Positions 850 through 36,400 are shown, numbered from the whole stretch's first letter. The stretch is 51,581 nucleotides of DNA, filler included, from Bilabrum cf. latius (GCA_965178125.1; 2 parts of 2 records of this genome joined end to end with filler, not necessarily neighbours in it); one strand, 5' to 3'. Notes: generated from the sequence alone by a model not told the origin. Program-made: numbers and translations.

Positions 850-1423
850 TCCTCGGCAGCTCCTGCATCGGAGCCTCCTGTCGAGATTCGATCGCGCAAC
901 GTCGTTCCTTACATTGCTTGCCGTCGCATGTGCCGGGCGGTGGTGGGTGTGCGTGTTCGCCGAAAGTTCCCGGCCTCGTCTTCCTCAGGAGAGCTCCTCG
1001 ACCCGAAATTGGCAGCTCAGCGCTGCCGTGGCCGATACAGTACCCGTGCACGGCCAGTTGGCAGCTACGCGCTGCCGTTGCCAATGTCGTCCGCACGAGA
1101 GCAGAGTGGCAGCTCAGCGCAGGCGAGAAACCGCGCTCGCAATGCTGCGAGGTGTATTCAATGCTGTGCACGTGTCTATCCCTCTCCCTGGTTTTGTCTC
1201 GCTTGCGCCAGTGTGACCGCAGCAGAGCGGGTGCTTCCCGTGCGTCTTCAGCTTTGAGCACTCCTCCAGCGACAGGAAGGCATTCGCTTGCTCTCGCTCC
1301 CCGCCTGCGTCCTATCCCTCCCGGGTATCTTCAGAGGCCACAGGCAGTGCGAAGCTTGGCAGCGGGTCCGTCCGCGTCGTTTCGGCTGTGAGCGATCTTC
1401 TGCCCGGTTCCTCACGCGTCATA

Positions 1424-9899: not shown

Positions 9900-9945
9900 C
9901 GAGCGAGAACATTGACTGGTGGCGTGGCTGGAGGATCTCGGGAAC

Positions 9946-10250
9946 ACACGGCGGGCGAGCCGTTTTTCAAAAGGAGCACGGGTCCTTCGGGACGCCATTT
10001 CACTTACGGCGGGCGAGCCGTTTTCCGAATGGTGCGGGGGTCCTACTGATGCACACGGCGATCGCTGGTTCACTCACGGCGGACACACGGCGGGCGAGCC
10101 GTTTTTCAAAAGGAGCACGGGTCCTTCGGGACGCCATTTCACTTACGGCGGGCGAGCCGTTTTCCGAATGGTGCGGGGGTCCTACTGATGCACACGGCGA
10201 TCGCTGGTTCACTCACGGCGGGCGAGCCGTTTTCCGAATGGTGCGGAGTC
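9946..10250. repeat. ~139-bp tandem repeat containing five acggcgggcgagccgtttt hairpin motifs
   Basis: Motif near 9948, 10006, 10087, 10145 and 10215; acggc/gccgt stem with a 6-nt loop followed by a T-run. Confidence 0.9.
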
Positions 10251-10388
10251 CTCCAGATGACCACGGTGATGGGTGGCAGCATGTCATAGGCGCGCCGTCG
10301 GAAGCTTCCCCTTCGAGTGCTGCCTAAAACTGAGAAACCTGGAGATCCTAGCATCGTATGGAGGCAAGAGGTAACACCTTGGGGTCCG

Positions 10389-11557
10389 TTCTCCGCTTCA
10401 ATTCCTGTCCCAAATCCGATTCCCATTTCGAGACCGAAAAAGGTGACCCGGAAAACGACGGTACTTATTTCTGAACCGTTTTCCGGACGCTTTCCGGGCC
10501 TCCCATGTGACCGCTTTTTGCGTACCGAAACACGTTCCGCGCGTGAGGAGCAGATGCGGGGATTTCGCCAAAAATGGCCGATCCGCACAAGGAATTTAAG
10601 TTGCGGCGACACAGCTCGGACCCCGGCTTTTTTTTGGCTGTTTCGGGGCCCCAAGAGGGCTCCCGGCCCCAAAAAGGGCAAAACGCGAGGTTGTGGTGGA
10701 AAAAATGGGCCCCAAGGAGCCCCCAAACGACGCAAAACGCCACGTTGTTGTGGATTTTAGAGCCCCTAAATCGCCCAAAAAAGACGCAAAACGCCACGTG
10801 GTGGTGGATTTTAGAGCCCCTAAATCGCCAAAAAAGACGCAAAACGCCACGTTGTAGTGGATTTTAGAGCCCCTAAATCGCCCAAAAAAGACGCAAAACG
10901 CCACGTTGTGGTGTTTTTTTTGAGCGTTTTCGGGGGGCTCGGAAGGGGACCCCCCCAGGATTTGGCCAAAAATGGCCGATCCACACAAGGACTTTAAGTT
11001 GCGGCGACACAGTTCGGGCCCCGGTTTGTTTTTGCGGTTTGGGGGCCCCGAGAGGGCTCCCGGCCCCAAAAAGGGCAAAACGCGAGGTTGTGGTGGAAAA
11101 AATGGGCCCCAGGCAGCCCCCAAACGACGCAAAACGCCACGTTGTGGTGGATTTTAGAGCCCCTAAATCGCCCAAAAAAGACGCAAAACGCCACGTTGTG
11201 GTGGATTTTAGAGCCCCTAAATCGCCCCAAAGAGACGCAAAACGCCACGTTGTAGTGGATTTTAAAGCCCCTAAACCGCCCTAAAAAGACGCAAAACGCC
11301 ACGTTGTGGTGTTTTTTTTTGAGCGTTTTGGGGGGGCCCGGAAGGGGACCCCCCCAGATTTGGCCCAAAATGGCCGATCCACACAAGGAATTTAAGTTGC
11401 GGCGACACAGTTCGGGCCCCGGGGTTTGTTTTGCTGTTTGGGGGCCCCAAGAGGGCTCCCGGGAGGCCCTAGAGTGGCCCTTCTCCGCTTCAATTCCTGT
11501 CCCAAATCCGATTCCCATTTCGAGACCGAAAAAGGTGACCCGGAAAACGACGGTACT
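10389..11557. repeat. Nested tandem repeat block (~399-bp units containing ~52-bp subunits) bounded by 77-bp direct repeats
   Basis: Units start at aaaatggccgatcc (~10570, ~10968, partial ~11367). Subunit gacgcaaaacgccacgttgtggtggattttagagcccctaaatcgcccaaaaaa. Boundary repeats at 10389-10465 and 11481-11557. Confidence 0.95.
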
Positions 11558-14451
11558 CTCCGTCACTCCATCTGGCGGCGAAAATTGCCTCAGTTTCCGG
11601 TCCCCGATTCCGGGCCCAAGGACCCCCGAAATTCCCGATTCCGCGCAGTGCCGAAAGCTCGACATAAACCACAAACACGACACACAACACAACACGATAG
11701 CGCCTCCCCACGCGCGGGACTGGGTCCTTCCGCTCGCTGCATGTGAGCTGCAGTGTGTTCTTGCCGGGAATGTCACTGGAAGTCGCGCTGCAGTCTGCTC
11801 AGGGCGCCTTATGACCATGAAGGCGTCTCAGCACCCGCGACGGCAAGAGGGGGCACGCACGACGTTGCGAAGCACCCGCCCTGGGTGAAGAAACTGCGTA
11901 TCCACAGGAGTCACGTTCAGTTGCGCGAGAATTGGAAAGGCGGGGTAACTGGTGCAGAGGAGCTTGTTCGCAGCGCGGCTTCCACCAGCGCCGCTGACGA
12001 TAAGATGCATCGGTCTCGGTACATGAGTCGGCACGGTGTTGCGTGATTGACTTCACGATGCGGGAGTGTGCAGCCTTCCGCAGCGGGAGAATTGTATCTC
12101 CCCACGACCGCCGAAAAAAAAAAAGGCTATGCTGGACTCGTTCCAGGGAAGGCTATGCGATGAGTATCTCTAGGCGCTTTCCGGAAGACCCACCCACTAC
12201 ACGCTGGTCAGCCCTCCCAAGCGGGAGTGAACCGCGGAGCCGCGGGCCCGTGAGCGCTGCTGCTACGATCATTTCTGCCCGTTTGACTCTCGCCCACTCT
12301 TGCCGTGACCAAAGACGCGCAGATCCTTATGACGCATGACACCTCGTCGAGGTGTCGAGACTGCCTCACATTCCCGTTACGGAGACCCACAGCACTGCGA
12401 CAACGAAATCGGTCACGAAGAGAGCAAGAGGCCGCGCACCTGAGCATCACAAAAACCCCGAGAGACATAAACAACACCGTACCGTGAAGTCCCTGCGACG
12501 AGGGGATGCTAAGCGGCTCCCACGGCGGCTCCTCTGCGGGAGAAGCTGCCGCAGACCTCGAGATGGGATGCACATGATTGCGAAGATTGCGGAACTCGTC
12601 CGAAGCCGGTCGCACGAGGGTCACAGCGAATGGAGGCATATCTTTGAAATAGAGTCTGCGTGCAAAGCAGCATTCCAAACGATCGTCCGCATTCTTCCGA
12701 GCAAATCCTTGGGAGCACACATCCTGCGGACGACATCTCTTTTCTATCCACCCCAGCGTACTCCCCGCGCACACTTCTCGCGAATGATTGAGAATTCTGT
12801 GCGGCACATGTAATATCAGGCTACCATGATACGCGGAATGGCGTGCTATTGCTCGCACGTTCGTGCGCCCCCTTCCGAATGCGCTTACCACATCACTATG
12901 TTCGTCGGCAACCGTATACACCGTAGGGGTCTTCCCTCCGACACCAAGCGTACACGACTGGCCGTAATAGCGCAGCGTAGATGTTTCGGACGTCGCCCAG
13001 GACAAGTGTCGACGCCCGGTTCGTCACGATCACTACGTGTGCACTTCACTCACCGCCCTCCAGCCGCTAGACTTCTTTTGGAACGCGACATCCTACGACG
13101 CGCTATGACACGTAGCCGTAAACCGCAGACGGCCTCGCGTTCACTGCTTGCAGCGCAAGTGCGTGAACAAGAACCGCCCGCGTGGCACACCTTCGCAGGC
13201 GCGGAAGACAAAAAGTTCCTTCTAAGCTTGTATTCGGGTCCGAAAGCCAAATTCCACTTCGGGGTCGAGAAGGGCGACCCGGGAAATCACCGTACGCTCT
13301 GTGAATCCATTTCCCGGGGAAAGTCCCCGAGTTCCCGCTACCCGGTCCCAGGCCCAGCGACCCAGGAAAGTTCCCGTCCCCCCGCATGCGGAAACCTCCC
13401 ACGAAGCACGCCCACCTCACGCTTCACACGCAAAAGTCCAGGAGTCAAATCCATTCCGGACCCAGCAGTTCACCCCCCGTGACGATTGGGAAAGGCTCTT
13501 GCACACACCTTCTCGTCCGAGCAGTCTATGGAGCACACGCCTGTCTTCGTTGCCTTTTCCGGCCAAAAATGCAGGGAGTTCGAAGGGGAAGTAGCAAACG
13601 CGGAAGACCGCTTTCGAAACGCAGGTGCTCAGGGAAAAACAACCAGAGCGTCCCTGATCCTCGGCAGAGCCGTCCAGGAGGGACGGGCACGGACGGGCAT
13701 CGCAGATCTTGCAGCGCCACCATTCGCCGGGATGGGCGACCGGACGAGGGCGACCACAAGTACGTAGCGTGCGACGTCCGTCAGTCGCCATGTTGCGCTC
13801 ATTCGCTTTCGCGGCACGACTTCCAGGGCCGGCCTTACTCACTCCTCGGAGTCCGCGTGTGGATTCTCCCCTGCGCACGATCTGCCGCTCTAGATGCTAC
13901 ACAAAGATCCCGCTCGGATGACCCCCTCTGTGCATTCTGCAAGATTTTACGCGCCTCCATTCAATGCGCGAAGCATGCACCGCAGCAGTCTGAGTCCGGT
14001 GACCACCTTCAATAGCGTGGGACAAATTCCGTCCGCGATGTGCATTCGGGCATGCTCCCCTTTCCGAGTCTCTGTGACCCGTAGTGCGTCCGCGGCCAAC
14101 GACTCAGGACTCCACGATGGTACGCACGAGTTGCATTCCTTGCACGAAGCGTGCGGAGAGAAAGCGATGCTCAGACATCGAGGCGCTTGGAGGGTCTGCA
14201 CACGACATGCTTCGAGAGGCCATGCAAACATGCGAAACCAGAACTGAGGTTCCTCATCGTTCCTGCTGTCGAGCGCTCAATTGGGGCATCGGATCAGGAC
14301 GAAGCTCGCGAAGAGAGGGCGCGGGTGTCCCCATCCAAAAATCCGCCGCCTTCAAGGCTCATGTTCCCGGATCCTGCATTCGCGAGTTTCGGGAGCAGAA
14401 GTGCAAGATCGCCGCTGGACACACAGCGCATGCCATTTCCCGTCTCTGGAG

Positions 14452-17013
14452 ATGTCGGGCTTCCAGGCGCAATTCGGACACCATCGCCAGGACCTCGGGA
14501 AGATGACATGTCTGCTGATCTGCAGGGAAGAGTCCCGCTTCGAGGAGTGGCGACAAAAAAAAGGGGCGCGAGAACTCCACGAGCACATGGGAGCGGTCCT
14601 TCGGCTCCCCAATCCAGTGTTTCCGCAGACCGACAGGGACCCAGATGGACGCGACATCGTCAAAGACCAGGCCCTCTTGGATATCTTCTCCGGCAAGATA
14701 ACGGACTGGAGCAAATACAATCCGGCCACTGTTGGGGCGATCCAATCCCATCGAAACGCATGGCTGTGGGCTGAGAACCACACGCCGACGGAATGGCTCA
14801 TGGTTGTCGAAGATGATATCGAACCTCGCGAAGCATGCGTGGATCGGCTACTCGTAGTTCTTCACGCCATCGCGAAAAACCCCAAGGTGACGCAGATGGC
14901 CATGTTAGCGGGGTCAGAAGCACCGAGAATGGTCACCCTCCAGCGCGAAAACTCCACCTCCATCCACAATTGCGAGCGCCTCTTGGACGTGCGGACCTAT
15001 CCGGCGCACTGGGTAGACAACACATTTGTGGTCCCCTACCACGTCGGCATGGGCCTAAAGTGGTATCTCATCAGCCCGGAGGGGAGGAAGGCGCTCCTGA
15101 AGATGCGGATCCCGAACCGAAGCTTCGAACGCTGCGTCTGGCGCCGCCTCTTCGACACGTTCCAAGGGCCGGTATGGAAGTGGGGAGATTGCCTCCGCAT
15201 GACATCTGTGCTGGCAGCCAGCCCGGTCCTCGCATCGACTCCCGAAAGCATGGACACGGAGTGGGGGGGCTCGGGACGACGAAGTGCGGATGCAGGGCAC
15301 AGTATGAAACCGTACATAATGATCGACCCGAGTGACGACTGGACTCTTGGCGAGCGATTAAACACATTGTCCGTCGTGATGTCCGTGTGCGCGGCCCTGA
15401 GTTGGGGGGTTGTCCTCGTCTGGGAAAAAACAGAGCGCGTGCCCATCTCCTACGAAGACTTGTGCGGTGTTCACGAGCACGCCGGCGAAACCAACACGTT
15501 CGTCCACCTCCTCCAGGACAAACGCGGCGGGTCGTATTCGTACTTCCTGAGGTACGGAGACATCCGCATCCACGTGGTGCAGCCGATGATGTGCATCCCC
15601 ACCCTCGACAGAATGCTCGACATGGTAGCCATGAAGAGGCCCAAGATGAACACCCTGCCTCCCTTGAAATGGCAGACCGCTCGATGGATCCAAGTCAAGC
15701 AGAAGTGGATCGATAAACTCCACACGGAGATGCCGGGGGCCGAGCTGCCCTCATGGCTGGAGTGGCCACCCTCAACCCACGCGCTTGTCCTCTGCGACGA
15801 CAGGGACTTGGCGGCGCATTGCCTCGAGGGGAGATGCCAAGAGGAGCAGCAGGAGTGGATGAACGGCGGGAAGGACAACAGCATCCAGTACTACATCCTT
15901 GAGGCAAAGCAGGCGCTGCAGAACGAGTTGGAAGACATCCTAAAGGGGGACAGCAGCTCGCGCCTCGTCGTGATCCGCATGACAACCAAACCGCTGGGAC
16001 AGGTCTGGGTGGACATGATGAAGCACCTCACGAAGCAGTTCAGGGAGCGCATCATAACGCCAACGTTCCTCCTCCCGAAAATGATCCCCAAAAGGAGGCA
16101 CGACGAGAAGAACCCGAGTGATGATTGGATTACTTGGGGAGCATCCTTGGCGAAAACCGTGGGCCTCCTCACGCTCATACCTCCGATGCAAGTGCACTAT
16201 CCCATCATGAGCTGGACCGTGGCCTGGAACCACTTCATGTTTAAGGGCAGGACTGCCACGGACACCGTGATCCCAGACGTCATCCGAACTCTGTACGCTC
16301 CGCACAAGAGCAACAGGAAGCAGCTCCTCAAGAACGGCCCGCTGTGCCAGACGAGGCGCGCCGTGCTGGACTCGCCCGCACTGCGGGACATTGCGAACAA
16401 CTACTCAAGGGCCAAGGACAAGACCTATAACCTCTTGAGTTATTCCAAATGGTTTGCCGAGGAAGCCATGTGGCACATGATCAAGTACGCGGAAAGCACG
16501 CAGTGCATCGTCGACCCGTTCGTGAGCCGCCAGTGCCAAAAGGTCTTCGAGCACATCCCCTCGGACGACATCGGCCATGCGGACGCCCGGCTCCGGTACA
16601 ACCTTCAGGATGCCGACGACCGAGGTTACCGCTTCAACGCGGGGCATCTCTACACCGCGGTGCAGGGCATCAAAACGGTGAACATCGCATACAACAAGTG
16701 GCTCACCGAGCAGGCACAGAGTCATTCCGAATGGAGCTGGGGCAAAACGTTCATCAAGCTTGTGATCAACCAGTGGCGGCAGCAGCAGGGCAGTGAGCCG
16801 TATGACGTGGACGAGGAGGAGTACGTGAGCCTTCCGCGGACCTTCCACGGGAATTCGTTGAAGCTCGCGAGGAGCGTAAGCCACAAGGACACGAGATCCT
16901 GCTCCAGATCGTCCTCATCCTATTCCAGGTCGCCCTCCACCAACAGGACTGAGGCACAGCCTTCGAAGAGAGCGCGCCTGACCCCGGCACCCGGCGTAAA
17001 GCACGAGCCCTGA
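14452..17013 (+). CDS. Large glycosyltransferase: GT25-like N-terminal domain plus probable fucosyltransferase-like (GT-B) domain
   Basis: GT25-type VGAIQSHRNAW...WLMVVEDDI. A second motif TLGERLNTLSVVMSVCAALSWGVVLVW...YEDL resembles the GLGNRL...W...DLF N-terminus of fucosyltransferase-like proteins. Open 853-aa frame from the first ATG. Confidence 0.7.
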   Translation: MSGFQAQFGHHRQDLGKMTCLLICREESRFEEWRQKKGARELHEHMGAVLRLPNPVFPQTDRDPDGRDIVKDQALLDIFSGKITDWSKYNPATVGAIQSHRNAWLWAENHTPTEWLMVVEDDIEPREACVDRLLVVLHAIAKNPKVTQMAMLAGSEAPRMVTLQRENSTSIHNCERLLDVRTYPAHWVDNTFVVPYHVGMGLKWYLISPEGRKALLKMRIPNRSFERCVWRRLFDTFQGPVWKWGDCLRMTSVLAASPVLASTPESMDTEWGGSGRRSADAGHSMKPYIMIDPSDDWTLGERLNTLSVVMSVCAALSWGVVLVWEKTERVPISYEDLCGVHEHAGETNTFVHLLQDKRGGSYSYFLRYGDIRIHVVQPMMCIPTLDRMLDMVAMKRPKMNTLPPLKWQTARWIQVKQKWIDKLHTEMPGAELPSWLEWPPSTHALVLCDDRDLAAHCLEGRCQEEQQEWMNGGKDNSIQYYILEAKQALQNELEDILKGDSSSRLVVIRMTTKPLGQVWVDMMKHLTKQFRERIITPTFLLPKMIPKRRHDEKNPSDDWITWGASLAKTVGLLTLIPPMQVHYPIMSWTVAWNHFMFKGRTATDTVIPDVIRTLYAPHKSNRKQLLKNGPLCQTRRAVLDSPALRDIANNYSRAKDKTYNLLSYSKWFAEEAMWHMIKYAESTQCIVDPFVSRQCQKVFEHIPSDDIGHADARLRYNLQDADDRGYRFNAGHLYTAVQGIKTVNIAYNKWLTEQAQSHSEWSWGKTFIKLVINQWRQQQGSEPYDVDEEEYVSLPRTFHGNSLKLARSVSHKDTRSCSRSSSSYSRSPSTNRTEAQPSKRARLTPAPGVKHEP

Positions 17014-17887
17014 CGACGAAATGCCGCGGAACAGCGCGTTGCGAGGAGACAAAGCTCCGCAGGCAACAGCAGAAGGCCGCCGAGCGCCGGAGTTGGAGGG
17101 TCACATAGTTCCATCGGTCCCATTCTCTCCGGAAGTCGCATAGCACGTGGAGATCCGCATGCTCTCGGTGCATGAACGCTGGCAGCACGCAGTGCCAAAG
17201 TCGCAAAGCGCTTCAGAGTCACAAGTCCAGAAGTTCTTCTGCCAATGTGTGTCCTCTTCCCACTCATGTGTGCATCCTCGGAGGAAGTCTGGAGATGACA
17301 GGACCCAGCACGCACCACATCAGAAGTCCTTTTTTAAAGCGGCATCGTCAGACAAAAATCTGGAACGCCCTTCCGCAAAAAAGAGTGCTGCCCACAGAAA
17401 AAAGGGAAACACCTGAGGCCCCAGAAGCCAAAGGGAGGACCGCGAAGGACGCAGTTTCGAGGTCACACTTTCCGGGACCAGTTTTGAGCCCAAAAAGGGG
17501 TACACAAGAGGAAAACACGATGCGGGAGGCTTGAAATTGTCACCGAAAACGGGCCCAAAATTGGGACCCCTTTTTCGCAAATTTCGCAGCATCCAGACGA
17601 CCCAGAAAGGCTTTCCCAGGCGCCGCCTCGAAGCTCACCTTCTCGCATGCAACCATGACGCAGCCCCACCTCCTCATGCAGACGCGTCTGAGAGACCCCG
17701 CAGTGGAACTTCTCCCATTCTGCGCAGGAAGCACTTCAGTCTACAAGGACCCGCGCACTTCTTACCGCACCACCTCCATGTGAAAGCACTTCTCGCGGAG
17801 TTTTTTTCGGGCCCAGGAATACAGCAACTGCCAGAAGCTTCGCACAGAAAAGCAGCCCACTCAGGAAGCAAACTCACTGCACACCCC

Positions 17888-18358
17888 ATGGCGAGCGACG
17901 CAGAACCGGAGGACGCAATGCGGCTCGACTCCCCTAGAGATGCGGATGCAGCGGCGCCACCCGAAGCGACGGAGGCAGGATCACAGAAACCAGATCATGC
18001 GCAGCAGTTCTTCGAGGAGCCCTGCCCGAAAGACGGACACATGGAAGCGCTAGAGAAGACCGCCAAGACGGACGAACCTGGCGACACACCCTTGTTCGTC
18101 GACAAGTGGACGGCAGCGATCACACGCCTTACCGAGGAGCGCAAGGCTCTCAAGCTCGAGCAGCGGGCTAAAACGAAGGCCATCCGCAAAACCATCCGGC
18201 AGAAAAGGCGCACCATGAAGAACGCCAAAAAACTCACAGACGACGAGCTCGCCCAAATCGTGCTAGACAGGAAGATCTTGCAGTTGGTGCAAAAAGAAGA
18301 GATCGCAGCACGCAGCTCCGCCAACTCCTCAACGAGCCAGGCGAAGTCGACCTTGTGA
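17888..18358 (+). CDS. Small protein (156 aa): acidic N-terminus, basic coiled-coil C-terminus
   Basis: ITRLTEERKALKLEQRAKTKAIRKTIRQKRRTMKNAKKLTDDELAQIVL; G/C-ending codons; directly upstream of the origin/Rep region. Confidence 0.7.
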   Translation: MASDAEPEDAMRLDSPRDADAAAPPEATEAGSQKPDHAQQFFEEPCPKDGHMEALEKTAKTDEPGDTPLFVDKWTAAITRLTEERKALKLEQRAKTKAIRKTIRQKRRTMKNAKKLTDDELAQIVLDRKILQLVQKEEIAARSSANSSTSQAKSTL

Positions 18359-18780
18359 GAAGCGCTTCCCGTGTTCAGAGAACCGAGGATTACAGATAGA
18401 CCCCGCGTCACAGAAGCCATCGCAAGAGGGCAGAGCGTCAAGTACAGCGCAGTCTTGACGGACACAGATAGCCCGAGCAGCACAAAGCAGCGGATGCGGC
18501 TGCCCAGCGGAGTCGCGCACTCGGACAGCATACACGGGACGTGCTGGCAGAAATCACTCAGTCCGCGAGCACCGTCGTCAAGAGCACGGGAGGGGCAGAC
18601 TCGACATGCACAACTTTGAAAAACGGGAGGGGCACGAAAGGAAGACAAATTTGGCATTAATCCTTGATTACCCCCGCCCCCCCGTAGAATCAGAGCGAGG
18701 AGATATGCTCGGAAGGTCCGGGGGGCAGTCGCAGAAAAGTGCACGCGAAAATAAGAGGAAAGGGGACCCCCCAAACCCAC

Positions 18781-19025
18781 GTAGTGCGATCCTGGGTGGT
18801 ACCCTCTAAGGTACTAAGAATCCTTCCCCCGAAAATCGCACTACATCGGTCCCTGGCGTCGGGGAAAGCGGAAAAAAGGGGAGCACTACCGTGAAAAAAT
18901 CCTGCATTTTACAGGAAAATCGGAGCACTACGTGTCAAAAACTGGGGGTTTTTGAGGTTTTTTTTCCAGAAAAACGGCATTTTTTTATGTAAAAACCGCG
19001 CGAAACGAGCACTACCGAGCACTAC
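18781..19025. promoter_or_regulatory. Candidate rolling-circle origin: inverted repeat plus GCACTAC iterons
   Basis: 10-bp perfect IR 18781-18790/18835-18844 encloses gtacc-ctctaa-ggtac. gagcactac occurs at 18881, 18923, 19007 and 19017 within A/T runs, ~500 nt upstream of Rep. Confidence 0.5.
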
Positions 19026-19534
19026 ATCGCCTCCTCCAGTCGTGTTTCGCATTTTTTTCGCTGGCCGAAAATGTCTCCGAAGGCGCTGCCTCGAGGGGGG
19101 GTTCCGATGGCTGATTTTGGGCGTTCTGTTGTCGATTTCGCGTGCATTTCAGGTTGTCGGCGAGGCCTTTTTGGCGTATGTCGCAGGTTCGGATGCCCTC
19201 GAACGTCGTGTCTCATGTGGTATTCGCCGGTTTCTATGTTCGAGAAGGCGGTCGGTCGGTCATCCTCTCTGGCAGGCTCCGAAGTGCGTTTGTGATCGTG
19301 CTAATTGCAACGCCATGCTTTCCTTCGTTGGCTTCGAGAATCCTTCCCTCGGAAGCGGTACTACCTCGCCCAGGGCGGCACGAGCTGCAGACTCAGCTGC
19401 CTCGGTGCTCATGTGTGTCCCGTGTCAGCAGTTTCGGTGTTACGAACAGCAAGGATTCTGGGCATTGCGTGTCGGAGGCAAGTGTTCTATCTTGAGGCAT
19501 TCCGCGATTCGTCGAAGGATTATTTGCGCAAATA

Positions 19535-21820
19535 ATGTCGGCTCCGTTCAAGGGCGAAACGATGAGTTTGTCTGTTGCCGAGTCGCTGAAGTCCCGAGTC
19601 GCATCCTGCTCCTGGGATCCCGCGTGGGTTTCCGCGAGCTGCGTGCCGTGCGATGGCCTCCCCACAAGCCAGGAGTCAGAAGCGTCCACGACGGCGACCT
19701 CTGCTTTGTTAGGGGTGTCCGAGGCGTCCCCAACGTGCTCGTGTGGCCTCGGTGTCTCCAATTCGGTGGCTGCAGCGCGCGCGGCCGCTGTCCCGAGTTT
19801 TGGCTTTGACGATGCGGAGAACGACTTCGACGCCAGTCTCGACATGATTGAGGCCTCATGCGAGGTCGCATGCGAGGCAGAATGCGAGGGCGATCCGGGA
19901 GCCTGCTTGTTGTCCCACGGCAAGTCGAGCGGTCAGTGGCAGATCGGCGTAGTGGGTGAACGAGTCCTTTATGAGGGCCTCAGCGTTGAGGGCGACATTC
20001 CTGGCCGCGTTGCTGCCTCCGAAGCGCTCGCCGCGGGTGTCATCAATTTGGAACCCCCGTCAGAGGAAGTACTTTTGCCGGTGCAGCTTCTGCGGAGTAG
20101 TCAAGGTTACCGTGGGGTTCTGCCCATCGAGGATTCTGCGCCCGATGCGAGGGGGCGACCGCAGATGCTCATGCTTCCCGATTTCGTACCCCCCGTGAAG
20201 AGGCGGCGTCTTCGGCAGAAGTGCGACCCTGCTGAGGGCGATGCAGCACCGAGTCTTGCGGCTCATCTCGGACCTCCGCCCGCGGCTCGTGCCGCGGCCG
20301 GAGCGTCTGGGCCGCAGCGCTCGACTGGAAGGCCTTCGACTCGTCCTATTGATAGTGTCATCTATCGTCTCCTGCGGGTTTTCCCTGACGATTTCAAGTT
20401 GGCGTTTCCGGCGTCGGTGTCACACCAGCGGAAGCGGTGCCTCATCAGGGAGGCGCTTCGCAATGTACCCGGTGACCGCATGTGCATCTTGAAAGACTGG
20501 GCTGCGGGGGCGGAGGACACTCCTTGCCAGCTTCGTTTCGAGGAGCTCTTCCCGGAGCTTGCGCGGCAGCGGGACGAAGTTGTGAGGAATCCGGGATCGC
20601 ATTCAGTGCCCGTGGGCGAGATTGTGCCTGCGTCCGACAAGAACACGAGGCGGGGAAGGGCCGTGATGCTTACCTTTCACGGTCGCTGGGGTGTCGAAAA
20701 GGAGCCTGTGCGCGACATCATGTCGGCATCCGTGGCAAGGGGCGTCCTGAGGCGATTGGTTCTCGCGTCTCCGTTCTATGTGGAGCTTTGGGCCACCTTC
20801 AAGGCATGGGCGCAGGACATCGCGCGGCGGATGATGTGGCCTCAGCTGTCCATGAAAATGGAGCTCTCCCTGCACCGCAAGCACGCCGCAAACTTGGTGC
20901 ACTTCCACGTATGCATGACGGATTCCGAGAAGTCGCATCGTTGTCGCGTGGCGGAGGATTTCATGTGGGCCGGCAGCAGGCCGAATGTCGTCTACGGCTC
21001 CGGGCGGTCAGCGAAAGCGCAGGAACGTGGCGCGTCGGAGTTACACTATTATTGTCAAGCTCCCAAAGTCGGTGCGCTGCTTTGCGCCACGAACTACCGA
21101 GCCGGACGCGATTTCGTCGTCAATGGTAAGTTCGTGCACGCGTTGTTCGCACGCTTCAAAATGGATCCGGACGTCGCGAGAAGGGAACTCGTGGCGTATC
21201 GGTGTCGGGACGCCGAGAACTTAGTGCGCGCCATCGACTTCCACATACAGAATGCCGCGGAGAGGAGAGAGGTGTGCGCGCAGGCCGCGGTGCACGTAGT
21301 GACGAAGCTCCGCCCCTTTAAGGTGGTGCCCGAAGTCGAGAAGTGGCGCGAGAGCTATCGTCAGGAGTGGTTCGCGCACATGCGCTTCAAGTTCCTTGTC
21401 TTGGTGGGGGACTCCCGGTTCGGGAAGACAGTGTACGCGCGGAATCTCTTCGGGAGCGAAAGGACTCTTGTTGTGAACTGTCAGGGCAGTGTGGAACCTC
21501 CGCTCCGTGGCTTCGATCGAAGTCGGCATGTGGCCATTGTGTTCGACGAGGCAAATGCCCTGTGGGTCGTCAACAACAAACAGGTCTTTCAGGCTGGCCT
21601 TGACCCCTCCCTGCTCGGCCAGAGCAAGACGAACAGCCTCGCATACTCTGTGTGGCTCCACGGTATCGCCCTGATCATCTGCACGAATTCGTGGGGCTCT
21701 GACGTGACGGAGTCGGTGGACCGCGAGTGGCTTGACAACAACTGTACGAAAGTGGAGGTGAAAGATCGGCTCTACTTCGACGAGGACTTGTTGTCTCTCA
21801 CGGATGTGCAGAAGAGCTGA
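19535..21820 (+). CDS. rep: CRESS-DNA-virus-like replication initiator (HUH endonuclease + SF3 helicase) with long N-terminal extension
   Basis: Motif I AVMLTFH, motif II VHFHVCM, motif III HYYCQAPK. Walker A LVGDSRFGKT, Walker B IVFDE, motif C IICTN. C-terminal WLDNNCTKVEV as in gemini/genomovirus Reps. Confidence 0.92.
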   Translation: MSAPFKGETMSLSVAESLKSRVASCSWDPAWVSASCVPCDGLPTSQESEASTTATSALLGVSEASPTCSCGLGVSNSVAAARAAAVPSFGFDDAENDFDASLDMIEASCEVACEAECEGDPGACLLSHGKSSGQWQIGVVGERVLYEGLSVEGDIPGRVAASEALAAGVINLEPPSEEVLLPVQLLRSSQGYRGVLPIEDSAPDARGRPQMLMLPDFVPPVKRRRLRQKCDPAEGDAAPSLAAHLGPPPAARAAAGASGPQRSTGRPSTRPIDSVIYRLLRVFPDDFKLAFPASVSHQRKRCLIREALRNVPGDRMCILKDWAAGAEDTPCQLRFEELFPELARQRDEVVRNPGSHSVPVGEIVPASDKNTRRGRAVMLTFHGRWGVEKEPVRDIMSASVARGVLRRLVLASPFYVELWATFKAWAQDIARRMMWPQLSMKMELSLHRKHAANLVHFHVCMTDSEKSHRCRVAEDFMWAGSRPNVVYGSGRSAKAQERGASELHYYCQAPKVGALLCATNYRAGRDFVVNGKFVHALFARFKMDPDVARRELVAYRCRDAENLVRAIDFHIQNAAERREVCAQAAVHVVTKLRPFKVVPEVEKWRESYRQEWFAHMRFKFLVLVGDSRFGKTVYARNLFGSERTLVVNCQGSVEPPLRGFDRSRHVAIVFDEANALWVVNNKQVFQAGLDPSLLGQSKTNSLAYSVWLHGIALIICTNSWGSDVTESVDREWLDNNCTKVEVKDRLYFDEDLLSLTDVQKS

Positions 21821-22224
21821 CGCCGGCCGCTGAGGTTTTCAGTCCGGTTCACACGAGCGCCGGAGCCGCAGCGGCAGCCGCTTCGGTGCTCCTGAAGGTC
21901 TAATGTCCTCAATGCGTTTCGTGTGCAAAAAGGATGTGATTTCTACATGGGGGCATTCCGCAAGTTTCATGTGGTCCGTCGCGTTCGTCCGGGGGAGTGC
22001 TTGCCTAGTATTGGGAGCTTGCCTGACACACACACACGTGGCACCCAGCCTGATGGGTTGCAAGTGTGTGTGTGTCTCCGCAGTGCCGCGGTTGGGACCC
22101 GGCGGGTCGTTTGCTTTTACGTCGCCGCGTCGCGCGCCGACGAGACATTTCTTGGTCTCAGAAGCCTCTGCTTCCGGTAGGCGCGCCGTGTACGCTCGCG
22201 GGCCGAAGGTGGGTGCGTTGCTTG

Positions 22225-22917
22225 ATGGCCTACGTCGGTATCGCCGATGCACCGTATGTGCCCGTGGTTGCCGCGTCGACCTCCGAGCACGCCCCGGAGG
22301 GCGAGGTGGAGATGATGCTTGCGCCTCTTGCCGGAGATGTCGGTTTCAAGCGGCCTCGCGTGTTTCCTCCCGGTTCGCGACTTCTTCCTAAGTCGCCGGC
22401 CCATCCGGCGGTGCTCATAACAGCGCTCGGCAGTGAGGCACCCCAGGACACACAGTGCGTCGTTTGGTCGGACTCTAAGGCTTTCGACCTCGCGGAGTTT
22501 GTATGCTCTTCCTGCGGCTGCAATCGTGTCATGGCGGACCTGAATCATCGTATGCGTGATCGTCTCGTACGTCGCGTGCAGCGCACGCTTTATGCCGATG
22601 ATTCTCCGTGCGGCAGGGGTGCGATTTCGTGTCGTGCTTGTCGCGAGAAGGCGCGCGACGCGGCGCCGAAGACGTCGATTATGAACGCGGCGAACAAGAA
22701 GAAGATCTCGGGAACTCTTCGCATGCAGTTGGATCTCATTGTAGAGACCGGGGAGCGGAAGGGTCAGCGTTGTACTGCGGAGAAAATTCTGACGTTGGGA
22801 ACGATGAAGCAGCACAGGGTTTTCGAGAGGGACCTTTACGATGAGGCATGGCGCGGGCTTGTTCGTCTGTCTGGACGCGAGGCTTGGAGCGATGACGACT
22901 CGTGGTCTCCGCGTTGA
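22225..22917 (+). CDS. Hypothetical Cys-cluster protein (230 aa)
   Basis: ATG 22225; CSSCGC...CGRGAISCRAC; co-oriented downstream of Rep. Confidence 0.6.
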   Translation: MAYVGIADAPYVPVVAASTSEHAPEGEVEMMLAPLAGDVGFKRPRVFPPGSRLLPKSPAHPAVLITALGSEAPQDTQCVVWSDSKAFDLAEFVCSSCGCNRVMADLNHRMRDRLVRRVQRTLYADDSPCGRGAISCRACREKARDAAPKTSIMNAANKKKISGTLRMQLDLIVETGERKGQRCTAEKILTLGTMKQHRVFERDLYDEAWRGLVRLSGREAWSDDDSWSPR

Positions 22918-23124
22918 GCTTGCGTGACGGTTTTCCCTCTTAACCTGGCCTCTTGCGTGGCGCTGCTTCCGCGTGTGGCCTGAGCGTGCGACCTGAGCGT
23001 TCGGCCTGCTGTCGCGTGTGACCTGAGCGAACGGGCGCTCGACAGTATCCCGCGTTTGTTGCTTCTGGGGTTCAAGAAACTTGTACTTTTTGGGCTGTAC
23101 GGTGGTCAGTGGTGCACGGTTCGT

Positions 23125-23250
23125 TCGCAGCCTCCGCGTTGTTGGAAAGCTATGGTGGAGCATGGTTCTTTTCGCAGCCTCCGCGTTGTGATCAAGCTAC
23201 GGTGGAGCATGGTTCGTGAGCATGGTTCTTTTCGCAGCCTCCGCGTTGTT
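23125..23250. repeat. Short tandem repeat (three tcgcagcctccgcgttgt copies)
   Basis: Copies near 23125, 23172 and 23232. Confidence 0.85.
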
Positions 23251-24036
23251 GACACGTGAAAGCTACGCGAACGTGACCACACAATAGGCCATACCCCAGG
23301 TGAAATCCGGACTCGGACATCCAGACGAAACGGCATCATGCACACTGTTGAACACACAAATGACACTGAGCTCCACCGTAACGTAACTTTCCATCACCAC
23401 CTGGTTTATTTTCTCCGCGATGGCAGCTTGGCGGTGACGCTGTGTCTTCGGGCATGAAGGGGCAAATCTTTGGTTTTTTGGGCCCTGTTTCGGTCACCGA
23501 AAAGTCGTGTGATTTCTGGCGCGCAGGAGGAGTGACGCAAGGTATTTCTGAACCGTTTTCCGGACGCTTTCCGGGCCTCCCATGTGACCGCTTTTTGCGT
23601 ACCGAAACACGTTCCGCGCGTGAGGAGCAGATGCGGATCTCCGCGGGGTCCTAGTTGTGTCCTTTTTCGGGGGACGAAATCGGGCGCACTTGTCGTGCCG
23701 ATTCGTGGTCGTCTCTGAGACCGGCTGCGAGTCGGGAAAGGTGCCCGGGAGATGCTCGTGTCCTTGGCTTCGTATTTCTCCGCGTATTCTTCAAACGCGG
23801 GCGCACGTCTCCTACCGATTCGTGGTCGGTTTCCGAGGCCGATCGCGAGTCGGGAAATGCGCCCGCGATGCGCTCTCGATCTCGGAAAGGGCGGGAGTCC
23901 GTTCTTGCATTCGGAATGGGCGGGGAGTTGCTTTTCCTGGGAGCATGTGCGAGATTCCTTCTCCGCGGGTCCTCTTTCGGCTTCGGCAGTCAGCAGCGCA
24001 CTCTGCGGGAACGGCATTCTCCGAGTCTCTTTGCCG

Positions 24037-25044
24037 ATGATGTCTGAGGAGAAACCGTCCGAGAGCATTGCTGTTTCCTTGGGAGACGGCCGCAATCTTC
24101 GTGGGCGTCGAGGCGCCGGTGATATGGGAAACGAGGGCGGCATGTTGGCGCGCGAGGTCGACGCCCCGGCGGAGCACGCCGGCGCGGCGGCAAGCGTCGA
24201 TGATTCGGGCGGCCCCCACATCGAGAGCGGCGGCGCGGAGGCGGCGTCCACGGGGATGCTCGGAGAGGAGAGCGGCAAGGCAGCGCCGAAGGAGGACGCC
24301 GAAGACGACGGCGGCAAGAAGACGGAGGAGGAGGATGCTCGCGGCGGTGGACGTGCTGTGGTGCCCGGAGGTAATGACGACGTATGGACCGACGCAGCAG
24401 CTTGGAAGGCGGGTGGCGGCGTGGCAGCCGGGGCGGTCTCTGGCGCTGATAGCTGGGTTCTATGGGGGACCCCTGCGAAGTCGTCATGGGGGGAGACGTA
24501 CGTGCCGCGGCAGGTCGCGCCGGAGCCGGCGGAGGAGGCGACATGGACTTGCAACGCGTGCCAGTGCTGCAAGCCCCGGTCGGCGTACTTCAAGAAGTGG
24601 AAGGACTGGATCCAACCAGTTTGCCGGGTGTGTTGCGACAAGTTCGACAACGCGACGCCGTGGTGGGTGTGGTGCAAGAACTGCAAAAACGAGTATCCGG
24701 CGTACCGATTTCCCCAGATCCGCCGGAAGAAGGAGAACCTGCGCTATTTCTTCCCTGAGGACTGGTGCGCGAAGTGCCTGGTTGCGCGTGGCTGGAGTCT
24801 CCATGATGTCCGTTCCTCTGCGGGTGAAGCGAAGCGTTGGGTGCCAAAAGCTGGCGCGAATACCGGTGACGGCGACAACGACGCTCGTGCTCCCGCACGC
24901 GACGAGCTTCCTGCAGGAGGCGCCGCCTCCTGCAGCAACGCCGTGCGTCAGAGTTCTTCGCGTGACGAGGCCTTGGATGACATCAAGCGGGCCATGGAGC
25001 TTCTCCAGAATGCGGAAAGGTTCCTCCTCACGATGCCAGCGTGA
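24037..25044 (+). CDS. Hypothetical protein with acidic N-terminus and tandem CxxC zinc fingers (335 aa)
   Basis: WTCNACQCCKPRSAYF...VCRVC and WCKNCKNEYPAYRF...WCAKC; C-terminal amphipathic helix. Confidence 0.7.
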   Translation: MMSEEKPSESIAVSLGDGRNLRGRRGAGDMGNEGGMLAREVDAPAEHAGAAASVDDSGGPHIESGGAEAASTGMLGEESGKAAPKEDAEDDGGKKTEEEDARGGGRAVVPGGNDDVWTDAAAWKAGGGVAAGAVSGADSWVLWGTPAKSSWGETYVPRQVAPEPAEEATWTCNACQCCKPRSAYFKKWKDWIQPVCRVCCDKFDNATPWWVWCKNCKNEYPAYRFPQIRRKKENLRYFFPEDWCAKCLVARGWSLHDVRSSAGEAKRWVPKAGANTGDGDNDARAPARDELPAGGAASCSNAVRQSSSRDEALDDIKRAMELLQNAERFLLTMPA

Positions 25045-25244
25045 CGCGGGAGCTTCCCGAGTGGGTCCGTCGTACTGTGAGGGCGCTCCGGAAGGAAGAG
25101 CGCGAGTGAGTCATCCTTGCGCCGAGGTGAGCGCGACGTCGGAGGAGCACGGTCGTTTGATTGGGAACGATATGGTCGGCAGAGTGTGAAAATCCGAGTT
25201 TCTCGTGCAGGATTGGGCAGCTCTCTAGATATCTTGCCTGGGAA

Positions 25245-25822
25245 GGGTGTGATGCGGTGGGAGCGCTTCCGCCTCACGTGGCAGACGTCCACACTTCCTG
25301 GTTCCCCGGCAGGCTGTTTGGCGAGACGGAGTGGCAAAGCATCCGCCTGCTGATTCCTACTTTGTTACCTCGATTGTGAGCTCGGAGCTTGGGGCGGAGG
25401 ATTCTGCGGGCAGCTCATGTGTGCCTAGAGTGTCATCCCGCGACCCTCTGACTTCTGTTCGTGGCTTTACCTCTTCGCGCAGGAAGATTCCTCATGAGGC
25501 AAGCCCGGTCCGAACTCGCGTGGGATGCCGTGCGCTGGTGCGGCTTCCACTCATCCCCGGGGTGGGGAGCGCTGGGTAAAGGATCGTCTGTCCCTGCAAG
25601 TTTCGATTCGGCGAGGTGCGGCAGCATGACGCGGACCGAGGTGAAGTCCTTTGTCCGCGATAGGTCGCCGCGTCGCGCGGTGGCGACCCCACAGCGCCCA
25701 AATCCCATTCCGGAGAGGGGGTGTGATGCAGTGGGAGCCCTTCCGCCTCACGTGACAGACGTTCACACTTCCTGGTTCCCATAAGGTCTTCAGCACAGCG
25801 CATGCGAGGCAGGCTGTTCGGC
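25245..25822 (+). repeat. Local ~470-500-bp tandem duplication whose second copy is completed by positions 1-403
   Basis: gggtgtgatgc.gtgggagc occurs at 25245 and 25719; the second copy stops at the contig end exactly where position 1 resumes. Confidence 0.9.
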
Positions 25823-25922
25823 NNNNNNNNNNNNNNNNNNNNNNNNNNNNNNNNNNNNNNNNNNNNTTAATTAATTAANNNNNNNNNNNNNNNNNNNNNN
25901 NNNNNNNNNNNNNNNNNNNNNN
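25823..25922. other. Artificial contig-joining spacer
   Basis: 44 N + TTAATTAATTAA (stops in all six frames) + 44 N = exactly 100 nt. Confidence 0.97.
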
Positions 25923-26184
25923 CCGGTGGAGTGAAACTGGCGTGTCAAGCCCTGGGGAAACGCGTGGAATCAACAAGCTTTCGAACAACTTGGCCCGTCG
26001 AACCCTCATGAGAAAGTTCCGGGGCGTTCGGGGTGGGCTGCGTGCAGAGCTTGACTCTCCCTGAAGTACTTGCGCGTGAGCTCGCACCAAGGAACAATGG
26101 AGAAGAATGAACAAGACCTTCTATCAATGCGCCGGCGCCTGCCGAACACTTGCGCAACTTTTCAAACCAAGTGTGGGCGATACA

Positions 26185-26620
26185 CCCCCCCCCCCCCCCC
26201 CCCCCCCCCCACCCCCCCCCCCCCCCCCCCCCCCCCCACCCCCCAACCCCCCCCCCCCCCCCCCCTCTAAACCACCCCACCCCACCCCACCCCACCCCCA
26301 CCCAACGCCACCCCAATCCCCTCCGCCCACCCCCATCCACCCCACCCACCCACCCACCCACCCACCCACCCACCCACCCACCCACCCACCCACCCACCCC
26401 CACCCCCACCCCCCACCCCCACCCCAACCCAACCCACCCCACCCCACCCCACCCCACCCCGACCCGCCACACCCCACCCCACCCCACCCCACCCCACCCC
26501 AACCCACCCAACCCCACCCCACCCCACCAACCACCCACCGACCCCACTCCACCCCCACCCCACCCCATCCCACCCCACCCCACCCCACCCCACCCCCACC
26601 CCATCCCACCCCACCCCACC
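26185..26620. repeat. Poly-C / (CCCA)n / (CCCCA)n low-complexity tract
   Basis: Directly visible; G-rich on the minus strand (G-quadruplex-prone). Confidence 0.95.
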
Positions 26621-33487: not shown

Positions 33488-36400
33488 CTAGATGTTCGTC
33501 TGGTCGTCGCTGACTCCATCGTTGCTGGCATCGTCCTCAGTGGCGACGGGCTCGGCCGGCGCCCGCTGCCAGACCGCGTCCGGCGACACCGCCGTGACCA
33601 ACGCCATTGCGATCGGGATGAGAGGGAACGCGCTGAACGCGTTGCCTGCCAGACAACTTGCCACTGCGTGGCTTGGGAGCTTCCGCACATCCATATAGGA
33701 GATGTCATAGCCGATGAACTGCAGCAGCTCCATGCCGTCTAGCTGTCGCATACTCGTGTGCACGCGGCGGCCCGCGAAAATCGCCTCGAGGTCGTCGCCC
33801 TCGATCGGATGCGAGGTGCTCCCGGTCCTCATGATGTACACGCCGCTGGCTGTCAATGTGGGAAGCTTGCCAATCCGCCAAGGGTTGCGCGAAGTGGCGC
33901 CCTCTGGCGCGTGCCGCTTGAGAGAAAAGTTGACGTCTATGAACTGCGGGATGGTCACGTCATCCGCCAAGTCCTGGGGCCAAACGTGGTTCACATAAAC
34001 CAACACTTCCCATGCCCGTTGGTCCAGGTGGCGGCACCACTGCAAGGTGTCCCGCGGCGCTGGCCATTGCATGCCACTCGCGTCGAACATCGCCATGTGA
34101 TCCATCTTATAGGCTGCATCGCTGCCTGCGCGCACACCGGTAATGCGCCCGGGGGTCTGCCACACACACCTCAAGCGACAACTCAACACTGCCAACCATC
34201 TGCAAACCCCTGCCCTGCGCCCTGGGACTGCCTGCCTCTGATGCCATTCTGTGCGCAACACCCGCATGACCATACAAACGAGACTTGCCTGAGACCGATC
34301 AAGGGGCGGCCTTCGTTCTGGTCGCCATCGCGGGACCGGTCCATGACTCGCAAGCCCTCTGGCAAGAAGAAAGAATGCCAAGGCTCCGCAACCTCCGGAC
34401 CGAGCCGGGTCTCCTCCATGAAGCGCCTGACCGTCTCTACCTTCCCCTGGTTCGCGGGGCCGAGGAACGCCAACCAATACAGCCGTTTGCGAGCCGCTCT
34501 GCTGCCGTAGGACTCCGCTGACAAAATGAACTCCTCCACTACACCGTACCCGGCCTCTCGGAGAACACGCTGGATGTAGCAAGCATCCGACTCGGCTGCG
34601 TCAGGTACTTCTTGCGCGAGGGAGACCAAGTTCTCGAGCAACACCGCGTCAGGGTGGTGGGCCCGGATGTGCTCGATGACGGTCTTGAAGCTTTCCCCTG
34701 TCTTCTCCTCCTCGCGCTGAACGCATCCTCTGTTCGCGGAGCAACTCGCGTTGAGAGAACTGCGGCTTTTGCAGGTAAAGCCTGCGACGAGGAACCGAGT
34801 GTGGCCGACCACGCACTCCTTCTTGTAGCGCTGGCAGAAGGCCATGCCACTGCTGAGGGCGGCGTTGTCCTTAAAGAGGTTGGCAGACTTGCTCACGCTG
34901 TGGCTCTCGAATTGGTCCAGTAAGAACTTCACCTTAGGCCGGTCGATCTCGCACCCCCAAGCCTGCTCGAGCTGCACCTCTTGTGAGTACTCCTCTTCCC
35001 AGAAGCGGCACAATTCCTCCACCACGATCGCAAAGATGTCAGTGCCTGATGACATCGTCCCGAAGGTGGACACGCCCAGCGCGCGCAACCGTGCCATATT
35101 GGAAGTCAGCTCGTTGACGAGACGCGGCGACAACTTGTGGTGCATGGCCTCAATCGCAAGACGAAGCGGGCTCCTGTACCGCGCCGCGGGCTGCTCTGAC
35201 GAGGCCTCAATCGCAAGACGAAGCGGGCTCCTGTACCGCGCCGCGGGCTGCTCTGACGATGACACAGTCGCAGCTTCTCCCGCCCCGCCTGCCACGCATG
35301 GCTCCAATGGCAAGGTTGGCTGCGCTCCCTCTCCGGTTTCTGCCTCCCGGCTCGCCTGCGGCGGTCCTGGCACAAGCGTCGACGCCTGCGACGAGCCGAC
35401 CTCTTGTGACACCGCAACGGCCTCATCAGCGTCCACCACGACCTCTGCCTCCTGCGGTCAGCATGCAAACTCTCAAACAACCCTAGCCCCAAGCTTCCGG
35501 CCTGGGCCTGGGCCCGGGCCCTCTCAAAATTCAGCCCGCGACCCAAGAAACACCGATTCTGACGCCTGCGCATCTTCAAGCTGTGGCTCCTGCCGCCCAT
35601 TCCCGGACACCCTGTAATCGACGGCAATTACCGGCAATTACCGGCCAATTACCGGCCAATTACCGGCCATTTTCCGGGCCAACAATTTCCGGGCAACCCC
35701 AAACCGTCCAAGACCGTCCAAGACCGAACCGTCCAAGAACCGTCCAAGACAGTATTTTTTTGAGGATGTCTCGAGCGAAACTTTTTCGGCCACCGTCCAA
35801 GGCCGGAAAATCCCCTTGGACGGTCCAAGCCCGAAACCGTCCAAGACCCAAAAAAGACAAAAAATCGGGACAGAAATTGCCCGGAAAATGCCCGCTAATT
35901 CCCGGTTATTCCCGATACTTCCCGCAAATTCCTGGCGGCTTCCGCAAAAAGCGAGCCGCAAGACATACCACACCGGGCTTAAGAGACCTTCCTCGCAACT
36001 GTTGCCTGCCTTGTTAAATTGCGCGCGTCCCGACAGACTGAGACACGACACGAGCACTGGAGATGCTCCTCCAAAGCAACAGGATGCGACATGCTACTGA
36101 AGAAGCCTTCCAAATCCAAGGCGGACGCCTGCCGCACGACGTCGTCTTCGTCGTCCTGGCCATGGCGAACCGGAAGCTCTGAGATGTCCTGCGATGCGCT
36201 TGCCTGGCGCCGCGGACGCCGCGGGCGCTTTGCGGGCGGCTCGCCCGTCGGATGCGCCGCTGTCTGTCCCGGCGCTGTCGTCGAACCTGCGCTGCTTGCT
36301 GACGCCCGCTCTGCGTTGCTCGCCCCCTGCGGCTGCACCTCTACCAACGGCTGCTCGCCTACGGCTGCTGCCAATGCCCCTGCCTGCATCTCCGCCGTCT

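Follow-up and report, generated by a model that had tools for sequence, protein, structure and literature searches.

To our knowledge, the Rep-initiated rolling-circle replicons of eukaryotes are known as viruses or plasmids of a few kilobases (kb) or as Helitron and Replitron transposons. Replicons of the CRESS type usually measure a few kb, and Helitrons can reach tens of kb. As described in the available part of PMC10288648, a CRESS Rep combines a single-tyrosine HUH nuclease with an oligomerisation domain and a superfamily 3 (SF3) helicase, Helitrons carry a two-tyrosine Rep fused to a superfamily 1B (SF1B) helicase, and Replitrons are eukaryotic transposons with a single-tyrosine Rep and no fused helicase (Craig 2023). 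A Rep-bearing unit also occurs head to tail in eukaryotic genomes in the endogenous geminivirus arrays of yam (EGV1) and Nicotiana (GRD), and in the portion of PMC5014472 on EGV1 the repeats measure 2.6 kb and the arrays may exceed 23 kb. The locus considered here lies in a stretch of 51,581 nucleotides (nt) from Bilabrum cf. latius (GCA_965178125.1), hereafter the window, in which two contigs of the genome are joined by a spacer. Contig 1, which encodes a Rep-like protein and a pogo-like DDE_1 transposase, is read here, tentatively and with a probability of about 0.45, as a mobile element from a microbial eukaryote, mapped in full and closing on itself, that would exist as an extrachromosomal circle and as head-to-tail concatemers produced by rolling-circle replication.

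Contig 1 covers positions 1-25822 with a guanine-cytosine (GC) content of 0.599, and contig 2 covers 25923-51581 with a GC content of 0.629. The artificial, non-biological spacer joining the two records (25823-25922) is composed of 44 N (25823-25866), TTAATTAATTAA and a further 44 N (25879-25922). Because the spacer begins at 25823 and bounds contig 1 on its 3' side, position 25822 is the true end of the record; base 1 is likely, and was assumed to be, the start of record 1. A unit of about 474 nt is present twice, with all segments on the plus strand. Its internal copy starts with segment A (25245-25322), the upstream piece of about 78 nt that was delimited by alignment to 25719-25822, and goes on with segment B (25323-25706), a truncated copy of the 5' region and first ~27 codons of the gene at 325-849. 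The other copy is split between the contig ends: A' (25719-25822), which carries 26 extra nt (25781-25804 and 25806-25807), forms the 3' end, and B'' (1-405), the full copy of the 5' region running into the complete open reading frame (ORF), forms the 5' end.

In blastn, 1-405 and 25323-25706 were 87.2% identical over 407 columns with five gap openings (E 4e-126), and 25245-25306 was 93.5% identical to 25719-25780 over 62 nt. In semi-global alignment, A' matched 25245-25322 at 73 of 78 aligned positions, the alignment stopping at 25322, and 1-420 of the window aligned from position 25323, with identity at 362 of 394 positions. The ends of contig 1 therefore abut exactly, without gap or overlap, at 25322|25323 of the internal A-B copy, by which the proposal of the first-pass annotation that the contig end continues directly into base 1 is borne out. 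Its further proposal, that joining the ends restores the region upstream of the gene at 325-849, holds only in the sense that A' comes to stand before B'' as A precedes the truncated B. If both ends had fallen randomly within copies of the ~474-nt unit, such a register would be expected about once in 474 cases by our own calculation. Neither end of contig 1 matched contig 2 in blastn. The seamless appearance of the ends would be explained by an assembler having opened a circle within an old tandem duplication of ~474 bp (A-B and A'-B'').

Both members of the duplication are recovered in sequencing runs. The indels that distinguish B from B'' occur at about half depth in runs X1 (25.5 of 49) and X7 (40.3 of 88.9), so B and B'' are both real and present at about 1:1, and the A-B boundary is crossed by contigs of X1 and X7 (24957/24977-25372). 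The longest exact runs shared by B and B'' measure 50, 45 and 39 nt, owing to which contigs built at k=31 break near the junction; within A and A' no exact run reaches 25 nt. The last 105 nt (25718-25822) have no close copy in either contig besides A (93.5%). In the protein collection, the Rep, DDE_1 and CxxC proteins of the window are each recorded once, on a contig whose 25,927 nt exceed the 25,822 nt of contig 1 by 105 nt, and this surplus has the length of the last segment, 25718-25822 (A'). The surplus could be a terminal overlap trimmed from the source record, and two separate flanking copies would also explain it. As a separate observation, the 26 extra nt of A' (25781-25807) resemble a 72-nt tandem unit (87.5% over 24 nt), whose corresponding places are 7313-7335, 7385-7407, 8156-8178, 8228-8250 and 8300-8322; small fragments seem, from these resemblances, to have been copied around the element.

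Six runs from three studies contained 78% or more of the words sampled from 20001-25822, and runs X1, X3, X7 and X8 were placed on 15200-25822 at 80% likeness. Near-identical copies of 15200-25822 were found in X1, X3 and X7, which belong to three studies, and a nearly identical sequence is filed under three organism labels. X1 and X7 contain contigs of up to 2.3 kb that differ from the window by ~0.3-0.4%, at depths of about 20 (14-71) and about 57 (52-179), respectively. For X3, 13,732 contigs were placed, 7703 of them at least 99% alike. At unique sites within 22261-23330, X3 is mixed, with the other letter at 56-74%, and that letter is fixed in X1 and X7. Records running over the ends of 15200-25822 numbered 1 in X1, 15 in X3 and 3 in X7. 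One of the X3 contigs runs from 25822 through 20 letters into 25342 (depth 99.8, 32 letters on the shorter side); by eye, 17 of these 20 letters match window positions 1-20 and 14 match 25323-25342. This contig reads as a variant copy with B''-like sequence after A', and it lends weak support to continuity across the junction.

The Rep-like protein of 761 amino acids (aa) is encoded at 19535-21820 on the plus strand, and its residues ~380-761 comprise a predicted HUH-type nuclease, a helical linker and an AAA+/SF3-like ATPase. Residues are numbered below by the C-terminal 382-aa query, of which residues 1-215, about 380-594 of the ORF, constitute the N-domain. Among 50 aligned family members, E64, H77, H79, Y127, K132 and K163 are invariant. 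The HxH motif (H77-F-H79) does not vary in any of the 50 and falls on strand 76-83 of the N-domain model, and Y127 and K132, likewise conserved in all 50 and putatively catalytic, lie on or beside helix 114-129. In the ATPase domain, Walker A (G251-K252-T253), Walker B (D292-E293) and the asparagine N339 are invariant in 12 of 12 sequences.

The AlphaFold model of the N-domain (predicted local distance difference test score, pLDDT, 96.7; predicted template modelling score, pTM, 0.89) places HxH on a strand and Y127 on a helix. When it was compared with 48,161 PDB chains by VIA, ranks 1-4 were all Rep nuclease domains, namely Vientovirus (Z 7.2 and 7.1), nanovirus M-Rep (6.2) and geminivirus Rep (6.1), with root-mean-square deviations of 2.6-3.2 over 81-103 residues; the nuclease domains of B19, SIRV1 ORF119, PCV2, AAV5 and MVM were the next matches. 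A HUH nuclease fold in the N-domain is thereby predicted with moderate strength. The two-domain model (pLDDT 75.6) matched CRESS Reps in BFVD over 340-370 columns (E 1e-9), and in Foldseek on PDB its top matches were SF3 helicases, with E1 at 2e-5, B19 NS1 at 4e-5 and AAV Rep40 among matches extending to 5e-4. The Atlas neighbours of the homologue P0012 were Gemini_AL1/RNA_helicase clusters (geminivirus-type Rep), and Gemini_AL1_M was matched by 2 of 50 family members (E 0.0012); PHROGs returned no match for the Rep-like protein. From motifs and models we conclude that the ORF probably encodes a divergent HUH nuclease joined to an AAA+/SF3-like ATPase, a Rep by architecture that stands outside the curated Rep sequence families. 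Its N-terminal half (19535-20670) is of low complexity and poorly conserved, and contains a basic stretch, KRRRLRQK, that by eye looks like a nuclear localisation signal; the family consensus shows a related R-x-R-L-x-x-K pattern.

Compared with the described systems, the 761-aa protein shares with CRESS and pCRESS Reps, which are also its best structural matches, the domain order of nuclease, helical linker and P-loop ATPase, and differs from them in an N-terminal extension of ~380 aa, a Y-to-K spacing of 5 and the lack of a match to any Pfam Rep family. At the level of the replicon, contig 1 differs from CRESS replicons in its 25.8 kb (13 kb in its metagenomic relative L012, described below), in the DDE_1 companion and in that no capsid gene or nonanucleotide was found. 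Contig 1 would work like a rolling-circle replicon of the CRESS type or of plasmids, but does not conform to them in sequence family, size or origin motif. Replitrons resemble contig 1 in their association with eukaryotes, a Rep that is distantly CRESS-like and short direct repeats near the ends, and the available part of PMC10288648 does not report them with a DDE transposase or circular closure. Assignment to the Replitrons was ruled out by the conserved P-loop ATPase domain that follows the nuclease. Helitrons are likewise rolling-circle-type mobile elements of eukaryotes, and were ruled out by the single invariant tyrosine and by an ATPase that is AAA+/SF3-like rather than SF1B.

The Rep family is large. 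The C-terminal 382 aa found 11 relatives in a word-indexed search, and HMMER gathered 1357 representative clusters at E <= 1e-3, of which 892 also passed E <= 1e-10; all are unnamed. Terminal overlap was looked for in 36 metagenomic Rep loci and found in one, L012, a contig of 13,155 nt whose exact 99-nt terminal overlap gives a closed map of 13,056 bp with both Rep and DDE_1. Like contig 1, L012 encodes Rep and DDE_1 (30% and 28% identity, respectively) on a single strand and has mostly one-stranded genes; unlike contig 1, it is half the size, has 50% GC and lacks a large mosaic of copied gene fragments. A 13-nt core, GGAGCTTGCAGCC, has 18 exact matches in L012, always on the strand of Rep and mostly between ORFs, and 2-6 exact matches each in loci L010, L011, L013, L014 and L024, again always on the strand of Rep; the window does not contain it.

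In IMG/VR, 11 pattern matches to the Rep family were obtained and none was confirmed, and PLSDB and phage records gave no match. Among 185,579 prokaryote species genomes (GTDB), a single relative was found, L037, a 1,859-nt contig of a metagenome-assembled genome labelled Proteobacteria, in which it is probably mis-binned. In locus L016, the ORF at 227-1519, upstream of and overlapping the Rep-like match, has an HMG box (Pfam 1.7e-5), a DNA-binding domain of eukaryotic type. DDE_1/pogo is a mainly eukaryotic family. Because of the HMG box in one relative, the near absence from prokaryote collections and the range of DDE_1/pogo, the evidence points to eukaryotic hosts for the Rep-bearing elements.

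The DDE_1 transposase (545 aa; 1388-3025, plus strand; Pfam DDE_1 2.2e-11) appears intact. Its triad, D233, D358 and D394, is invariant in 8 of 8 aligned sequences with 35 residues between the last two, and the DD35D type of spacing is the pogo signature. Elements with pogo-type DDE transposases terminate in inverted repeats, not direct ones. While contig 1 shares with pogo/Tigger transposons the DDE_1 match and the acidic triad, no terminal inverted repeats were found around the gene, contig 1 having no inverted pair of 30 nt or longer; near the gene only inverted pairs of 14-20 nt with 79-93% complementarity occur, none flanking the ORF symmetrically. DDE_1 relatives accompany Rep in 4 of the 36 loci (L001, L012, L033 and L034), including 3 of the 3 loci above 10 kb, and DDE_1 probably also stands beside Rep on a contig of 14,535 nt. 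The identity of DDE_1 tracks that of Rep, with 50% against 52% on the 14,535-nt contig and 26-28% against 27-37% in L001, L012, L033 and L034. Judged from this co-occurrence, the DDE_1 gene appears to be a conserved passenger of the Rep-bearing elements.

Contig 1 has 38 direct repeat families, and every gene that has homologue support is on the plus strand. Between 7000 and 9860 (plus strand), self-blastn, repeat families and ORF paralogy delineate a mosaic of direct-oriented fragments copied from elsewhere in the element, with source pieces at 20854-20999 (in the Rep gene), 24013-24215, 24377-25043, 16464-16565 and 14655-15164; the 146-nt part of the Rep gene occurs three times. As the mosaic junctions of 7.0-9.9 kb recur as joints in X1 and X7, they are not assembly errors of the source. 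The adjacent non-coding block at 9944-11478 (plus strand) contains tandem repeats of 139 nt (x2), 398 nt (x2.3) and 54 nt (x8) and a 16-nt hairpin motif (x5), and is a candidate origin or regulatory region.

These features would fit a rolling-circle cycle in which the Rep-like 761-aa protein nicks one strand at an origin, perhaps within the block of hairpins and iterons at 9.9-11.5 kb, the DNA is opened by the ATPase/helicase domain and copied round the circle from the 3' end by a host polymerase, and Rep rejoins unit lengths. During such one-directional copying, template switching may take place between short direct repeats, and this would explain why repeats are exclusively direct and why gene fragments have been pasted into 7-9.9 kb. 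The DDE_1 transposase of the DD35D type could allow the element to enter and leave chromosomes. The physical circle, the origin, the activity of Rep and integration are what we infer from the map and its genes.

Because the register is exact, a Rep-like gene is present, the overlap of L012 closes a related map, the repeats are direct only and the summed depth in X3 is very high, a closed 25.8-kb map, taken as circle or head-to-tail array together, is probable. The 25,822-bp unit, episomal or tandem, that the first-pass annotation had proposed is upheld in part, as a closed map that may stand for a circle or an array. Several results weigh against an extrachromosomal circle replicated by Rep. 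On the side of the DNA, the GC content of contig 1 (0.60) is near that of contig 2 (0.63) and fits long chromosomal residence too, and with a DDE_1 transposase on board, chromosomal copies are plausible. Neither A nor A' folds more stably than shuffled sequence (z 0.49 and 0.94), an origin motif of the nonanucleotide type, NANTATTAC, had no matches, and neither the 13 ORFs of the window nor 37 ORFs of related loci contained a capsid or structural gene by Pfam. On the side of the sequencing data, the summed word depth of X3 on 15200-25822, 0.95-4.4 x 10^5, is not a copy number; the raw reads of X8, from the study of X1, gave no placement on 15200-25822 and so no test. Continuity across 25822 into base 1 is represented, among the matches listed, by the one variant contig of X3, whose depth of 99.8 compares with about 10^5 in that run and which differs from the window at 3 of its 20 letters, and no junction contig of X1 or X7 was among the matches listed. 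On the side of the protein, the likeness to Rep appears at the level of the fold only: the Rep-like protein matched no Pfam family even at E 10, phmmer against PDB gave nothing significant (best E 0.38), and the 50-sequence profile reached at best E 0.077 on PDB (RBX1), a match judged spurious. The VIA Z of 7.2 for the N-domain is under the caution line of 8 of the tool, Foldseek on PDB found nothing at E <= 0.001 for the N-domain model (best E 0.66), VIA tied SF3 with ClpX, HslU and Lon (Z 11.9 vs 10.8) for the ATPase domain as for a generic AAA+ fold, and Y127 and K132, a tyrosine and a lysine separated by four residues, do not form a classical YxxK motif.

An integrated tandem array of the 25.8-kb unit, collapsed by the assembler and with no free circle, would predict the same exact register of the ends. 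The GC content similar to the neighbouring contig, a transposase that could have performed the integration and the mixed alleles of X3 at unique sites (56-74%), as expected of variant units, agree with such an array, which also has a precedent in the Rep-derived tandem repeats of eukaryotic chromosomes described for yam EGV1 in the available part of PMC5014472. The EGV1 and GRD units as presented there are, however, degraded viral genomes of 2.6 kb with a TAATATTAC stem-loop, whereas contig 1 measures 25.8 kb, has an intact-looking Rep and transposase and lacks such a motif. At the unique sites listed, neither X1 nor X7 is polymorphic within the run, so that an array would have to be very homogeneous or absent there; L012, a relative, gives a closed 13-kb map in an assembled metagenome, and the intact and conserved appearance of Rep and transposase suggests activity rather than a fossil. 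A purely chromosomal array is accordingly rather unlikely and ranks behind the free circle replicated by the Rep-like protein. A single integrated copy between direct repeats of ~105 nt, one A' having been trimmed from the 25,927-nt source so that closure is a by-product, would account for the 105-nt surplus having the length of 25718-25822, for A-like sequence being present at least twice in the element and for the depths of X1 (~20) and X7 (~57), which could be single-copy. It is distinctly unlikely, since pogo-type ends would be inverted and no inverted repeat reaching 30 nt was found, since a contig stopping at short repeats needs many copies and 25718-25822 has no close copy except A, and since the very high depth of X3 is left unexplained.

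Coincidence or an assembly artefact, with an ordinary chromosome carrying a local tandem duplication and the ends in register by chance or through repeat-breaking, would agree with the lack of a spanning X1 or X7 contig among the matches listed, with the assumed start at base 1 and with the recorded contig being 105 nt longer. Against the ~1 in 474 chance of an exact register, against copies just 87-93% alike without an exact A/A' run of at least 25 nt, by which k-mer graphs would not tie the ends, and against a content of Rep, DDE_1 and direct-only mosaic that is unlike contig 2, this explanation is very unlikely. A linear, terminally redundant or circularly permuted virus-like genome that replicates through concatemers and assembles as a circle would also give a closing map, and the very high summed word depth of X3 with its cloud of near-identical contigs (7703 of 13,732 at least 99% alike) and the nearly identical sequence under three organism labels would suit it. 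The same 13 and 37 ORFs contain no capsid, packaging or polymerase gene by Pfam, and there is no confirmed relative in IMG/VR and none in phage records, which leaves a virus-like genome highly unlikely and the least probable of these explanations.

Four further ORFs of contig 1 are on the plus strand. The 174-aa ORF at 325-849 has no Pfam family and no relative in the 36 related loci. The 910-aa ORF at 14281-17013 has no Pfam family and a weak glucosyltransferase-like stretch at its N-terminus (PHROG phrog_854, E 0.0013), and the 430-aa ORF at 23752-25044, with a Cys-rich C-terminus and no Pfam family, has its 3' part duplicated at 8554-9213. Downstream of Rep, a CxxC-rich protein of 230 aa (22225-22917) is 100% identical to P0179 and 60% to P0180, and a neighbour of Rep in L002 is 26% identical to it; the gene is kept after Rep in two relatives and is not capsid-like by eye. 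Three spaced copies of the short palindrome GGCAGC..GCTGCC lie at 1011-1127 (plus strand), a count not above chance (3 against 1.34 expected, with 13 of 100 shuffles reaching 3), and the fold z-score is -1.75, so that the palindrome is a lead only. Rfam returned no family across the whole window.

Contig 2 was considered as a sister segment and rejected, as it has no blastn or tblastx similarity to contig 1 and no closing signature. The mosaic and the tandem-repeat block of contig 1 have no counterpart in it. About 260 nt from its start, after a long poly-C, lies a C-rich tract of 438 nt with a period of 5 (26183-26620; CACCC, ~91 copies), which may represent a telomere-like repeat or an artefact of sequencing. 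The GC skew of contig 2 (25923-51581) is persistently negative over most of its length, and a minus-strand ORF at 34183-35439 is a fragment of a C-5 cytosine DNA methylase (Pfam 1.3e-6).

An open-access keyword search found no description of Rep together with a conserved DDE_1 on closing maps of 13-26 kb, which is not proof that none has been published. Contig 1 and its relatives may represent an undescribed class of large (13-26 kb) replicons associated with eukaryotes, in which a circle replicated by a CRESS-like Rep is combined with integration and excision by a pogo-like DDE transposase, a plasmid-transposon hybrid widespread in aquatic metagenomes and at very high copy in some hosts; as a whole this proposal is still doubtful. 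If it is true, an element five to ten times larger than the few-kb replicons would widen what such Reps can replicate, and it would be a candidate nuclear episome or shuttle element in a GC-rich protist.

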